The translations under genes and the position numbers were made by a program. Under the pieces are notes generated by a model, which was not told the DNA's origin, did not search any database, and was given only the letters and a program-made list of their open reading frames with translations. From a virus (taxonomy: Duplodnaviria; Caudoviricetes), in IMG/VR virus record IMGVR_UViG_3300037790_000132, positions 1 to 42,065 of that record: a DNA stretch of 42,065 bases, one strand, 5' to 3'. The stretch's first letter is position 1; the number at the start of each line of letters is the position of its first letter. Shown one piece after another: positions 22,056 to 26,646 of this stretch.

Positions 22056-22607
22056 TTAATCTGAGCCTTTTCCTTTTTTTTGTTTTTCTTCCATTTTGGT
22101 TTTTCGTGCCAAGTCTAAAAATTCAAACCAATCATTTAAACACTGCTTTATAAGATGTAACGAAAACACCAAAACACTCAATGCAAAAAAAGCTGTGAGT
22201 AAAGCAAAAAGAGTTGTGTAATAGCAATTAAACAAACCAAACGTTAATTGAGTTATTGCAGCACCAATACAACTTGCTACAGTCCAAAACAAAAAGTCGC
22301 TTAGGTTCTTTAATGGTGCATAAAACACCAACCCACTTTTTAATTTGCTTTGTTTTTCAAAGCGCTTTTCATATTCATCATGGTCATATACATTTTCTTT
22401 TAACTTAACAATGATGAAGGTTTTTAACGAGAGTAAAAATCCACCTAGCGTCAAAAGCCCAGCAAATAAGCTACCTCTAATGTTTACTTGATAAAATTTA
22501 ACAACTTTGTTTGGGTCTAATTCTAACCAAATAGTAAATCCAAAAATAGAAACAATAATAACAAGCGAAACAATAAAGCAATAAAATAAAACTTTTTTAC
22601 CAGCCAT
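22056..22607 (-). CDS. 4-TM membrane protein, partner of 22607..23569
   Basis: Four hydrophobic segments and a basic tail. TAATG overlap with the upstream gene. Confidence 0.7.
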   Translation of the reverse strand: MAGKKVLFYCFIVSLVIIVSIFGFTIWLELDPNKVVKFYQVNIRGSLFAGLLTLGGFLLSLKTFIIVKLKENVYDHDEYEKRFEKQSKLKSGLVFYAPLKNLSDFLFWTVASCIGAAITQLTFGLFNCYYTTLFALLTAFFALSVLVFSLHLIKQCLNDWFEFLDLARKTKMEEKQKKGKGSD

Positions 22608-23569
22608 TATCTGCTCCTTTGTTTTTTCCTGATTTTAGCTTTAAAGTACTCTGAACGCTCATTGCAAATGTTAATTAACTCTTTAATCATCCAACTAGTT
22701 GCAAATTTATCAACCTTCAATGCATTAATTTTTTTGCTAACATCATCAAATTCATAGGAACCAAAAACATCTAAATTTTTTGATATATCAAATATTTGTT
22801 CATTATCATGTGTATCAATGGCAATAACTCTGCCCGATTCAGCATCTGAATTATTTACGCAATTAACAACATTTCTAAGAAGGTCTCTAAACTTGGCTTG
22901 CTGGCTAAAAAGAAAACGTTGTGTGTTTTTTACTACATCATCTTTAATATTTCTGTACAGAGGTTCTTCAACTTCTAAAGCCGCAAAATTTAACTCTAAC
23001 GCTTTAATACGCTTCATATCGGTAAGTATTTTTTTTAGTTTTTCTTCACTTACAAGCATTTGCCATTTAAAGCGATCTTGGTAGTCTTTATTCGCCTTAG
23101 TCGTTGCTTTCTTTTTGGAGAGTCCTTCAGTTTCATTGTAATGTTTTTTTGCTTCATCTACTTTTTGTTTAACTATAATATTGAATTGTTTTTGTAGTAA
23201 TTTCATCATCCCATTCATACTACAAGATTGGTGATAATGCTGATAAAGGCCAATACCATTATCTTTTTTTATCACGAAAAAATTAAATTCCATTAGACTA
23301 GCATCAGGATCAAGATCAGACACCACTAGTTTCATTGCACCAGTTGCATCTTTTTTCAACTGACAGTATGTTTTGGCGTCTTTTGCAGTAATAACTAAAC
23401 CTACGTGATAATCATCATGAGCGTTAGAATTAACAAAAACTAAACGTCCACCACGGTTTTCATTTTCTTTATTGGTATCGATAGGAGTCGCCTCAATATA
23501 AGACATTAAATCATCAAGGCTCGGTTTGTCGGTTGGATCAATACTGAATCCCAAAATACGTACTTTCAT
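22607..23569 (-). CDS. Soluble hypothetical protein (DUF6731/DUF4747/KwaB-like by recollection)
   Basis: 320 aa, AT-rich, with GAGGGA RBS. EFNFFVI...GLYQHYHQSCS. The family call is tentative. Confidence 0.5.
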   Translation of the reverse strand: MKVRILGFSIDPTDKPSLDDLMSYIEATPIDTNKENENRGGRLVFVNSNAHDDYHVGLVITAKDAKTYCQLKKDATGAMKLVVSDLDPDASLMEFNFFVIKKDNGIGLYQHYHQSCSMNGMMKLLQKQFNIIVKQKVDEAKKHYNETEGLSKKKATTKANKDYQDRFKWQMLVSEEKLKKILTDMKRIKALELNFAALEVEEPLYRNIKDDVVKNTQRFLFSQQAKFRDLLRNVVNCVNNSDAESGRVIAIDTHDNEQIFDISKNLDVFGSYEFDDVSKKINALKVDKFATSWMIKELINICNERSEYFKAKIRKKQRSR

Positions 23570-23745
23570 ATAGTTCCCTCTAACTTATGGAAACCATACT
23601 TTAGTACAAAAAAGCTTTAGAAAAAACCAAACTGAACAAATTATTAACAAAATATAGCGTTGATAAATTGGATGGTAGAGCAAATTACTTTACATACGAA
23701 CGCTTTCTGATACTTTTCTTTTTAATTATCAAGGAGAGAATAGCT

Positions 23746-24732
23746 ATGTCTAAAGACCACCAAAAAGAAAAAGTTCGAAGTGTTTTCAACTATAAATACT
23801 TTCAATTAGCAGCTGCAGTACCACTCGTTCTTGGTTTCATCTTAATGATCTTCATTTGGAAAAACGATAACTTGTCTCTAGAGTGGCCAAGTAAAAAGAC
23901 ACTAGACACTTTTCTAGCTTATATGTCAGTTCCTTTATGGATTATGGGAGCATCAATTCCTTTTGCAACACTTGCAGCTGCAAATTTTAGAGCTATTCAA
24001 TTTCAAGAGAATTTAGAATATCAAAAAAGAAACTTGGAAAGGCAAGAATATGAACATGCATTAGATCTGTATCACAAAGAACTTACAATCTTTAAAGAGA
24101 AGCTTACCTCATCTTTAGCTAATGAAAAATATAAATTTATAACCGCAAGCGACTCAACAATGATATTCACTAGATTGTATGAAAAACCAACTAAACGCTG
24201 TATGGTTCCAGCAAAACCAGACAGTCAAGTTATTGAGCATTTGTATTTTTCTATCTCTTGTGCAAGCAAAGGTATAAAAGCAATTGATGGACTAAGAGTT
24301 ATAACTGATATTGATAAACGCAATGAAACTAAAACTGTTTTTTTAAAGGAATATTTTCCTGAACTTGGCCATGGAAATCATATAATTGCAGAAAAGTTGA
24401 GGTTTGGAGACATGATGATCCTCCAATTCATCTTGATATATGAAGGTATATTGAAACAGATATCTCACGCTCTAGGCATTAAGTTAATGTTAGTAAATAG
24501 TGAAACAGTATTGGATATCATAAAATTTTACTCAGAAGTAATTCGTTTTTATGTTTCAATTCAAGATGAATCGAAGTGGCCAGAAAGTAGTATTGAATAT
24601 AATGATGAGGTGAAGGAAGAAGATATTAATATTCTTAACCATTGGCTATCTGAAACTACTTTTGATCAGTCTGATACTCTTAATTTAATTATTAATCGAT
24701 GGTTTGCAATCATTGCTTTAAGTGAAATGTAA
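23746..24732 (+). CDS. Moron: 2-TM membrane protein with coiled coil, distantly like 20622..21476
   Basis: AAGGAG RBS before MSKDHQ (start reassigned). VPLWIMGASIPFATLAAANFRAIQ motif. Confidence 0.6.
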   Translation: MSKDHQKEKVRSVFNYKYFQLAAAVPLVLGFILMIFIWKNDNLSLEWPSKKTLDTFLAYMSVPLWIMGASIPFATLAAANFRAIQFQENLEYQKRNLERQEYEHALDLYHKELTIFKEKLTSSLANEKYKFITASDSTMIFTRLYEKPTKRCMVPAKPDSQVIEHLYFSISCASKGIKAIDGLRVITDIDKRNETKTVFLKEYFPELGHGNHIIAEKLRFGDMMILQFILIYEGILKQISHALGIKLMLVNSETVLDIIKFYSEVIRFYVSIQDESKWPESSIEYNDEVKEEDINILNHWLSETTFDQSDTLNLIINRWFAIIALSEM

Positions 24733-24813: not shown

Positions 24814-25578
24814 CTATATGAAGGTTTTAGCTTGAGTTTTATTTATACTACCTACATATGAAGCAATACCTCTTTTCTGTGCTTTTGAGTTACTTAATAA
24901 GTATGCGTACTGAAATCTTACTAATCTATCGTAATTAATTTTTTTATCATTGTTTTTAAAGTCGATATTGAATGCGGTCACACTATCTGAAACAGACAAG
25001 CTTTTAGATTCATTCAGGTTAAACTTTGATTTAACTAGATCAATCTTAAGTTTTTCATATATTTTAATTAACTCATCTTTATTTGAAGAAGAAATTAAAA
25101 TGTCATCCATATAAATGGACACTAATGCCTTTTTCTTTATGTGTAATGCATGAAGTTCACGTCCTAGTTTGCTATCAAATAGACACAATGAGGCAAGAAT
25201 TGGTGATTGGACAAACCCATAAGGCAATTGATGGCTAAATGGGTAATTTCTCATTACTTTAACAGTAGATTGCTTAGCGAAATTTCTTGCTTCTATATAA
25301 GGAAAAAACTTTTTAAGAGCTCTTGTTACACGAGTCCTGCTTATCGAACCGAAGAAGTCTTTAATATCTAGAGTAGCAAAAAAATTATTTTCTAGATGAA
25401 CCTCTATGGCGGCAACATGACCTCCATCTCGCAAGTGATAGTAATATGGTGGTGGCGTCCACCTTTTTCTGAGTTTCCACTGTATTCCTTTACCTATACT
25501 TCTACACGAATTAGTAGGGTTATAGACCCAGCGGTTAGGTTTTACTTCAAACCTATTAGACCAGCTTGATTCGTACAT
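24814..25578 (-). CDS. Compact retron-type reverse transcriptase (254 aa)
   Basis: LDIKDFFGSI, LPYGFVQSPILA and catalytic YMDD. Region X-like HVAAIEVH and region Y-like VTAFNI. Start at ATG MYESSW, with TTG at 25590 as an alternative. Confidence 0.88.
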   Translation of the reverse strand: MYESSWSNRFEVKPNRWVYNPTNSCRSIGKGIQWKLRKRWTPPPYYYHLRDGGHVAAIEVHLENNFFATLDIKDFFGSISRTRVTRALKKFFPYIEARNFAKQSTVKVMRNYPFSHQLPYGFVQSPILASLCLFDSKLGRELHALHIKKKALVSIYMDDILISSSNKDELIKIYEKLKIDLVKSKFNLNESKSLSVSDSVTAFNIDFKNNDKKINYDRLVRFQYAYLLSNSKAQKRGIASYVGSINKTQAKTFI

Positions 25579-25729
25579 TGACACTTTCAATTTTTGAGTA
25601 ATTAAAAGCCAGGTTGTAGAGATCTACAACAACAGGAACAAATTCAACAAGAGTTATTACGAACTCCATTAGAACAGTTACTATTGCGATACACTCTACA
25701 ACTGGACTATGTTTAGATTCATTATTCAT
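25556..25729 (-). CDS. 57-aa hydrophobic small protein, candidate retron effector
   Basis: GGAGG RBS at 25742-25738 and a hydrophobic core CIAIVTVLMEFVITLVEFVPVVV. Overlaps the RT start by 23 nt. Confidence 0.7.
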   Translation of the reverse strand: MNNESKHSPVVECIAIVTVLMEFVITLVEFVPVVVDLYNLAFNYSKIESVNVRIKLV

Positions 25730-25744
25730 AACATAACCCTCCAT

Positions 25745-25894
25745 ATCTACCTGACATGTCCAGCGCAAGCGCATGACTTTAATTAACTGAAGGAAACTAT
25801 ATGAAGAATGAGAGCATTCTTATAGAGCGCCTAGTAGAATCACATTGTGACGACTATGAAGGGGGCGGCAAGTTCCACCTTTTGTCAGGTAAAT
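25745..25894 (-). ncRNA. Retron msr-msd-like ncRNA
   Basis: Terminal inverted arms ATTTACCTGACA / TGTCAGGTAGAT (12 bp, one G-U). Internal hairpins at 25864-25879, 25832-25856 and 25797-25825. Lies directly upstream of the peptide and RT. Confidence 0.78.
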
Positions 25895-25896
25895 TA

Positions 25897-25924
25897 ATTA
25901 TATATAAATTTTTATAGCGATCAA
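25897..25924 (-). promoter_or_regulatory. Sigma70-type promoter for retron operon
   Basis: TTGATC-N16-TATAAT. The predicted start near 25890 coincides with the first ncRNA arm. Confidence 0.65.
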
Positions 25925-25938
25925 ATGTAAGTTAAGAG

Positions 25939-26646
25939 TTAAATCTTAGTCCTTTGTAAAACTCTCTCTACGCGGCCAAGTACTGTGAAGCGGCCGGATT
26001 CGATATCGTCTACCTCAACAAAGAAACTTGAATAGGCTGTGTTGTCGCTGGTGACTTTGTAGCCCTTACTTTTGAAATCGTACTGTATACGTTTTACGAA
26101 AATCTCATCATCAAAACGAAGTACACAAACACCTTCGCGTGCATCTGCTAAATCATCAACTAACGATACAAGTGTTAAATCGCCGTCATAAAGGGTCTGT
26201 TCCATACTGTCGCCACGAACGGGCACTACAGTGAGTTTTTTGTTATGTAAGTTATGTTGCTCTAACCAGCGTTTTGATAGCTCAAATCGCGCGATAGGGT
26301 ATTCAGCAATAACTAATGCACCGCCACCAGCACTTGCTGAAAGATCATACTGGGGTACGACAGATAAGTCCGCATGTGATGAAATGAGAGCTCCATTCCT
26401 AGATACCTTATTAGAAAGTGAAATAGAACTATTTCCAGTCAATATATAGTTCACATCGAAGCCTAAGCCTGATAATTGCGATAGTTTATCAGAGGGGATA
26501 GCTATCTGTGTTTCCCAACGACTCACCTGTTTAGAAGACATTCCTAAAAAATCTGCAATATTTTTTTGGCTTAAATTCAGTCTGTTACGTTCTTCTTTAA
26601 ACAATTCACAGACATTTACGTCTTGCGAGGGTTGATATTGAGACAT
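25939..26646 (-). CDS. cI: CI-like repressor (Cro/C1 HTH plus S24 peptidase domain)
   Basis: LSQKNIADFLGMSSKQVSRWE helix-turn-helix, SASAGGG cleavage region, GDSM serine and FVKR lysine. Confidence 0.92.
   Translation of the reverse strand: MSQYQPSQDVNVCELFKEERNRLNLSQKNIADFLGMSSKQVSRWETQIAIPSDKLSQLSGLGFDVNYILTGNSSISLSNKVSRNGALISSHADLSVVPQYDLSASAGGGALVIAEYPIARFELSKRWLEQHNLHNKKLTVVPVRGDSMEQTLYDGDLTLVSLVDDLADAREGVCVLRFDDEIFVKRIQYDFKSKGYKVTSDNTAYSSFFVEVDDIESGRFTVLGRVERVLQRTKI

Follow-up and report, generated by a model that had tools for sequence, protein, structure and literature searches.

The window, by which we mean the whole stretch of 42,065 bases that was analysed, is a Mu-like transposable phage with transposase, AAA transposition protein, terminase, portal, head and tail genes. 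On its minus strand, in the order promoter, structured RNA, 57-aa peptide and 254-aa retron-like reverse transcriptase (RT), lies a compact cassette of two genes in approximately 1.1 kb, in which about 160 nt of structured sequence stand ahead of the peptide ORF. The cassette is directly downstream of, and on the same strand as, the gene for a phage CI-like repressor (HTH and S24 domains, 235 aa; 25939-26646, minus strand), which is context outside the cassette, no such neighbour being conserved in relatives. A sigma70-like promoter (25897-25924, minus strand; -35 at 25924-25919, -10 at 25902-25897) matches the consensus at 10 of 12 positions, and a -10-like hexamer is found 12-15 nt ahead of arm A of the RNA in 62/87 loci; the only promoter-like site between the RNA and the peptide is a 9/12 match. 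A single transcript starting near 25890 is likely, as predicted from this arrangement.

Several features surround or overlap the cassette. Beside it lie accessory genes of 354 aa with two hydrophobic stretches (23668-24732, plus strand), of 320 aa matching phrog_2802 (22607-23569, minus strand) and of 183 aa (22056-22607, minus strand); those at 22056-24732 are possibly further defence cargo. Terminator-like hairpins occur on the opposite strand inside the RT gene (25448-25463, plus strand) and at hairpin a of the RNA (25862-25876, plus strand). Contigs from RNA runs (four runs) include two around the ncRNA only (X18, 25753-25938; X20, 25739-25872) and two others at 25396-26231 (X14) and 25171-25321 (X19); they were not counted as evidence, because they carry no strand, start or level and X18 extends past the predicted start. 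Four further RNA runs indicate that close relatives are present in other marine samples, and nothing more.

The RT (24814-25578, minus strand) carries YMDD at residues 156-159, matches Pfam RVT_1 (E 6.6e-17), and has neither an RNase H domain nor an RBS of its own; its start was placed at the ATG at 25578 because relatives begin there. The top fold matches of its structural model (pLDDT 94.6) are retron RTs, the closest solved folds being Ec86/Eco1, Ec83, Ec78 and Eco8 (Foldseek E 1.7e-14 to 1.5e-13, TM 0.70-0.78, identity 16-19%), and the catalytic motif is Y[MV]DD across the family, which is of the retron YxDD type. The best PADLOC, NCBIfam and PDB-sequence matches are likewise retron RTs, all of these and the fold matches lying under any curated cut-off shown. 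Where retrons carry NAXXH (region X) and VTG (region Y), the family shows HVAAxxxH and xAFN; some true retrons are reported to carry single substitutions in these motifs (PMC6868368). No UG/DRT model appeared among the best 25 of 52 PADLOC hits to the RT, and NCBIfam Drt3a reached 23 bits against a cut-off of 200.

The family as a whole matches no PADLOC or NCBIfam class, and with every PADLOC retron model its scores are far lower than those of true members; RT_VI gave 67 bits for the window and 48-84 for six relatives, and 192-297 for loci in which it is the best hit. In two quick trees, for which type labels were taken from PADLOC best hits, the family formed a clade with 100% support and a long branch, which fell outside clade 3 at two different positions, and AU tests left unrejected its grouping both with clade 3 (p 0.72) and with loci L218, L219 and L299 (p 0.70). 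Homology searches retained 458 RT homologues among 748 candidates, nearly all of about 255 aa among the 120 listed, and a profile search recovered 278 clusters (50% identity) at E<=1e-30 and 646 at 1e-10. A single-protein scan of viral contigs yielded no relative; an alignment scan yielded 53 loci.

Relatives occupy accessory positions of prophages. The E. coli cassettes are flanked by ogr and ssrA in P2-like prophages (L338:2079-3945, at the prophage end); in the window the site is a different one, next to the Mu-like repressor. One near-identical copy over 80% of the cassette length is held by 28/5,426 complete E. coli genomes. The RT of these prophages, WP_000151541 (257 aa), belongs to the same cassette, its 57-aa ORF being annotated as hypothetical; STY2879, reported as 99% similar, has been used as a diagnostic marker gene, its function being called open (PMC4409374), and the available text of that paper does not describe the RNA, the peptide or the mechanism. 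No conserved neighbour gene was found in the flanks, where the largest recurring family occurs in 6/87 loci (60/87 had 1.2 kb on both sides).

For comparative analysis 213 loci were fetched; together with the window, 210/214 matched at E<=1e-20. There were 420 nt upstream in 185 loci, of which 132 were non-redundant; 113/132 were fully anchored, L073 was dropped as mis-anchored, and the remaining 112 were dereplicated to 87.

The small peptide (25556-25729, minus strand; 57 aa with a 44-aa core ending in NY) is, by HMM, frame and hydropathy, a hydrophobic single helix and a predicted toxin. Its iterated HMM matches 113/132 non-redundant loci; in 420 control windows the score was at most 7.1 bits and none reached 10. 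In 79/84 loci the first ATG after arm A' of the RNA is in the peptide frame, which stays open as far as the NY codons, and substitutions in the middle of the peptide fall 195/122/276 at codon positions 1/2/3 (30 disjoint pairs); this conservation of the start frame, together with the codon-position bias, indicates a real, selected ORF. A 19-residue hydropathy of at least 1.6 is reached in 62/87 peptides (2.47 in the window), the N-terminus is usually basic (median charge +3; -1 in the window), and the tail past NY varies in length and sequence. As the preliminary description had stated, the stop (25558-25556) lies inside the start of the RT gene; it is 23 nt past the RT ATG, and it lies downstream of the RT start in 112/113 loci. 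That description had also pointed to ATGs at 25744 and 25774 to which the peptide frame remains open; in the window this is so (72-aa ORF, 25774-25556), but these starts are not conserved. An equivalent of the 25774 ATG is in frame and open in 12/87 loci and a 25744-like ATG in 16/87, and the extended forms of 72 and 62 aa were discarded because upstream ATGs are rarely conserved in frame among the 87 loci; the 25774 ATG is kept because it belongs to RNA helix B.

No match to the peptide was found in Pfam, PADLOC, NCBIfam or PHROG, and the ESM Atlas gave no lead (best score 0.76). The candidate identity of a split RT N-terminus was rejected, HHalign against retron RT N-termini giving a probability of 0.1-0.2%. 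In two loci (L011:1994-2485 and L155:1888-2485) this RNA and an RT of the family accompany an unrelated peptide of 60-61 aa; peptide and RT are there 124 nt (L011) and 238 nt (L155) apart, and the insert between them is conserved and non-coding. The middle of the peptide (25612-25701, minus strand) folds as one long hairpin in the MFE of the window, the whole RNA giving z -4.36.

The transcript is laid out in the order arm A, an invariant AG, hairpin a, strand D, hairpin b, a variable template hairpin, strand B, a GCGC hairpin, strand C and arm A', followed by D' (with the RBS), the peptide ATG, C', the peptide middle and B'. All parts are on the minus strand. The terminal inverted repeat, a1/a2-like, consists of A (25883-25890) and A' (25749-25756), which form a cognate duplex supported by covariation. 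When complementarity was the sole means of finding arm A, the AG (25879-25880) followed it in 81/81 loci. G25879 is a candidate for the guanosine that primes through its 2'-OH, since a conserved G behind the 5' arm is expected of a retron priming G (PMC8632793). Terminal arms and a conserved G at the presumptive priming position, as in retron ncRNAs generally, are both present. Stem-loop a (25864-25879; MFE folds, alignment A2) and stem-loop b (25839-25851) are msr-like; the latter is conserved in sequence, with invariant or near-invariant columns in alignment A2, was located in 84/87 loci and is a candidate RT-binding and stop element. The predicted msd-like RT template (25757-25837) comprises about 82 nt with a variable hairpin, its length across the family having a median of 83 and a range of 64-135. 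Within it lie strand B (25774-25788), the partner of B' (25611-25597), and the GCGC mini-hairpin (25772-25763), whose anchor is present in 125/132 loci, with strand C (25763-25758; together 25758-25772), the partner of C' (25707-25702). Both partners lie in the peptide ORF, C' in codons 8-10 and B' in the AFNY codons. Rfam gave no match over 25400-26100.

When cognate and non-cognate duplexes were compared in the 87 dereplicated loci, A-A' gave z -20.9, B-B' -15.2 and C-C' -8.4, and eight mismatched helix controls gave |z|<=2.1; as related loci share ancestry, these z-scores are not probabilities, and the wrong-pair and slid controls are only a partial remedy. In a sequence-only alignment of the 43 closer loci, the 27 named pairs of A, B, C and the GCGC hairpin were 94% paired, and 16/27 changed on both sides, against 9.3+/-1.4 when shuffled; slid controls were 25-36% paired. 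By helix, both sides changed in 7/8 pairs of A, 5/11 of B and 3/5 of C. D was left out of this count because it was misaligned by MAFFT; when re-anchored, D-D' gave z -18.0 and reached -8 kcal/mol or lower in 78/84 loci. The two loci with the unrelated peptide keep A, C and B, and because B' is non-coding there, the B-B' pairing reflects an RNA constraint; D pairing is -16.6 in L155 and -3.1 in L011, where the anchor picked the wrong stretch. On this evidence B-B' and C-C' clamp the predicted RT template onto the coding sequence of the peptide.

These data bear on the way in which the RBS is covered. The GGAGG is located, as had been described, at 25742-25738, and the 12-nt arms 25894-25883 and 25756-25745 are present and 92% complementary, an inverted repeat that is modest by chance in the window alone (14/200 shuffles gave one). 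Across relatives the closing arm is genuine (7/8 pairs changing on both sides, n=43) but shorter than had been proposed: pairing by position falls from 0.92 at -1 to 0.57 at -2 and 0.36-0.46 at -3 to -7, and the 12-bp form was rejected because pairing decays beyond 7-8 bp across the 87 loci. With the conserved -10 position, this probably sets the RNA start near 25890 and the closing of the arm at 25749, and position 25745 belongs to a different helix. The RBS does abut the arm in position, yet it is paired by a separate anti-Shine-Dalgarno strand, D (25855-25863), missed earlier, which forms 9 bp with D' (25737-25745; -13.2 kcal/mol in the window) and covers at least 3 SD nucleotides in 80/84 loci. 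The closing arm accordingly loses the role of gate that it had been given, and the proposed gate moves to D. The broader proposal, a single hybrid of ncRNA and mRNA in which the RNA itself controls the RBS, is supported by the comparative pairing, four cognate-specific helices tying the ncRNA to the RBS and the coding sequence, and occlusion of the RBS at the RNA level is well supported by covariation.

A-A' crosses D-D' in 84/84 loci. The MFE structure contains A in 39 of these and D in 31, and 14 have neither helix. The nested states, one with A and one with D, are within 3 kcal/mol of each other in 44/84 loci (-82.5 versus -83.4 in the window). Because the two helices cross, they must form either a switch or a pseudoknot, between which sequence cannot tell. 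A 7-nt direct repeat of D occurs inside the window template at 25806-25800; in the family test this repeat gave z 5.1 (seven controls |z|<=1.3), only 17/84 loci reaching 6 nt or more. In only 30/84 loci does the predicted DNA product show better folding than shuffled sequences (z<-2).

A strong SD precedes the peptide in 80/87 loci and the RT in 5/87, from which we reasoned that the RT is probably made by coupling to translation of the peptide. The RT is in the +1 frame relative to the peptide, with overlap, in 89/112 loci, and in-frame fusions of the two occur in 3/112 (L064, L082 and L090). Fused proteins of about 302-309 aa (P0059, P0161, P0062, P0021 and P0042) include a large Klebsiella cluster, P0059 having 173 members, and close relatives of these are split; P0009 resembles a fusion via a shifted frame. 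The model of P0059 shows one low-confidence helix of 43 residues (pLDDT about 37-59, with only 10/50 alignment rows covering it), and its pTM is 0.77 versus 0.89 for the RT alone; owing to the low confidence and thin coverage the model is uninformative.

The closest described system is Retron-Vpa2 (type VI; Zhang et al.), in which msDNA was shown experimentally to derepress translation of a toxic small protein (10.1101/2025.10.22.683967), so that the concept of a hybrid RNA has been known since 2025 and is not new here. As that system is described in the preprint, both have an ncRNA and a small hydrophobic ORF on one RNA with the RBS in stems, a 3' end of the ORF region that pairs back to the ncRNA, a DNA product of similar length (about 85 nt in Vpa2, about 82 nt predicted here) and a 7-nt direct repeat, proposed there as the trigger; for the window family it is covariation that points to such a hybrid RNA with a sequestered RBS. 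Unlike Vpa2, which requires its HTH (10.1101/2025.10.22.683967), the cassette has no HTH between peptide and RT, and the peptide overlaps the RT directly; the RT is divergent and shorter (254 versus about 300-330 aa, and only 67 bits to RT_VI), and the window family has crossing helices and an anti-SD within the msr-like part. With Retron-Sen3 (type VI; Garcia-Rodriguez et al.), as reported in 10.64898/2026.04.27.721009, the family shares an RBS in the basal stem, a hairpin just 5' of the RBS and a long-range repeat from the template 3' end to beyond the small-protein core; it differs in that the Sen3 small protein is a helical bundle of 75-79 aa, and in having no HTH. The RNA of Sen3 sequesters the RBS, and its toxin is nonetheless constitutive and controlled at the protein level by the HTH (10.64898/2026.04.27.721009), so RNA structure alone cannot decide the mechanism. 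A pattern derived from primers for Sen3 gave four matches, of which the one inspected (L214) was unrelated.

Searched against 93 ORFs lying ahead of 20 clade-3 RTs, the peptide profile matched no type VI small protein (best E 0.28). An HMM built from 11 type VI HTH proteins found no match in the 132 loci among ORFs whose ends fall close to the start of the RT, and in the flanks of 87 loci it gave three matches, each on the strand opposite; the adjacent CI repressor was considered as the type VI HTH and rejected, being a phage repressor that is not conserved beside relatives. As only about 78% of type VI retrons are reported to carry the HTH (10.64898/2026.04.27.721009), its absence is not decisive by itself, and one Vpa2-side type VI RT (L299, in G486; 287 bits), which has a 67-aa small ORF ending directly at the RT, lacks an HTH, indicating that loss is possible within type VI. 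Judged by sequence, the window family nevertheless falls outside the type VI definition in both the HTH and the type of small protein. The RNA upstream of L218, L219, L220 and L299 shares a hairpin with a GAGG-TTAGG/TTCGG-CCTC-like motif and their small proteins are basic and then hydrophobic, hairpin and protein loosely resembling the TAGG hairpin and peptide of the family. Like canonical retrons (Ec86/Eco1, Ec83, Ec78, Eco8), the cassette has arms at its termini, a conserved G following the 5' arm, a pair of msr-like hairpins and a template hairpin that varies; unlike them, it encodes the effector peptide inside the RNA, and its RT has a short N-terminal region and changed NAXXH and VTG motifs.

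Our main reading, to which we assign a probability of about one half, is that of a two-gene retron-like cassette, likely anti-phage, whose RNA pairs with the RBS and coding sequence of its own peptide, and whose RT is predicted to unlock a predicted membrane-active toxin. At rest, D would hide the RBS, and B and C would lock the first ~30 template nucleotides onto the peptide coding sequence; this pairing would damp both translation and reverse transcription, the RNA thereby doing the job of the HTH in Vpa2. Leaky translation of the peptide would supply a little RT, by coupling over the 23-nt overlap. Phage proteins that stabilise single-stranded DNA or block its turnover may be the trigger, upon which the RT would prime at G25879 and copy about 82 nt, starting beside A' and proceeding through C and B, whose strands host RNase H would remove; degradation of retron templates by host RNase H has been reported (PMC6868368). 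By the usual retron stop rule, copying would not extend to D, which sits between the msr-like hairpins; the RBS would therefore not be released by RNase H on its own, and a further step is required. Either the crossing A helix might win, or the DNA product, which would carry a complement of D through the 7-nt repeat, might pull D off the RBS. The outcome would be peptide and more RT, and growth arrest of the infected cell. Coupling of the RT to the peptide would entail both positive feedback and a leak, and if the RT depends on translation of the peptide, a tight OFF state is impossible. The natural peptide-RT fusions fit a free toxin less well.

It seems unlikely to us, if not strongly so, that a constant low level of peptide is instead held inactive by a complex of RT, RNA and msDNA, with the helices serving only to set how the RNA folds and primes and how much is expressed. 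Retrons usually work in this way, Sen3 has RBS pairing without translational control, and the gene overlap and natural fusions suggest peptide and RT in a ratio of about 1:1; however, no HTH antitoxin is present, a dedicated covarying anti-SD exceeds what mere tuning would need, and L011 and L155 exchange the peptide while keeping the RNA and RT family, which a tight protein interface would resist.

More doubtful is a peptide that is no toxin, serving as a leader or coupling ORF or, by frameshift or fusion, as an N-terminal anchor of the RT, so that the switch would control RT synthesis and the DNA would be the output. Such a role would agree with the absence of a strong SD before the RT in 82/87 loci, with the overlapping +1 frame and the three fusions, and with a tail past NY that is free to vary while the invariant residues coincide with RNA helices. 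The hydrophobic helix of the peptide middle is, on the other hand, under coding selection, the profile has no match among retron RT N-termini, peptide and RT are separated in L011 and L155, and the +1 frame could simply reflect the positions of stop codons in conserved RT codons. Inverse or RT-independent control, in which RT binding or the DNA product holds D on the RBS until phage-caused loss or RNA cleavage frees the peptide, is improbable: the same helices would fit, the A and D states differ little in energy and msDNA is reported as the antitoxin in most retrons (10.1101/2025.10.22.683967), but copying would destroy B and C and should loosen the clamp rather than tighten it, and the DNA strand made from the D repeat would base-pair with D instead of the RBS.

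No description of the family was found in the literature, where Mestre 2020 or the preprint supplements may list its RTs (as unclassified or among the 779 type VI members of Zhang et al.); as far as can be read from its genes and pairings, it appears to be an undescribed, HTH-free, crossing-helix variant of the hybrid-RNA retron. It is common though far below the PADLOC retron models, as the 278 clusters and the 28/5,426 E. coli genomes illustrate. The Vpa2 paper leaves open, in its available text, how the DNA product frees the toxin message (10.1101/2025.10.22.683967); the present system is smaller, and because all of its long-range helices are mapped by covariation, the steps are testable by paired compensatory mutations. 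The short RT and length-variable template could also interest genome-editing work. We suggest, tentatively, that the family may represent a widespread, so far unrecognised minimal class of retron in which RNA by itself replaces the protein antitoxin: a multi-pseudoknotted message would lock both the toxin RBS and the RT template, the DNA product would act as an anti-anti-SD, and the RT would be made only by coupling to the toxin ORF, rendering the response self-amplifying and all-or-none.
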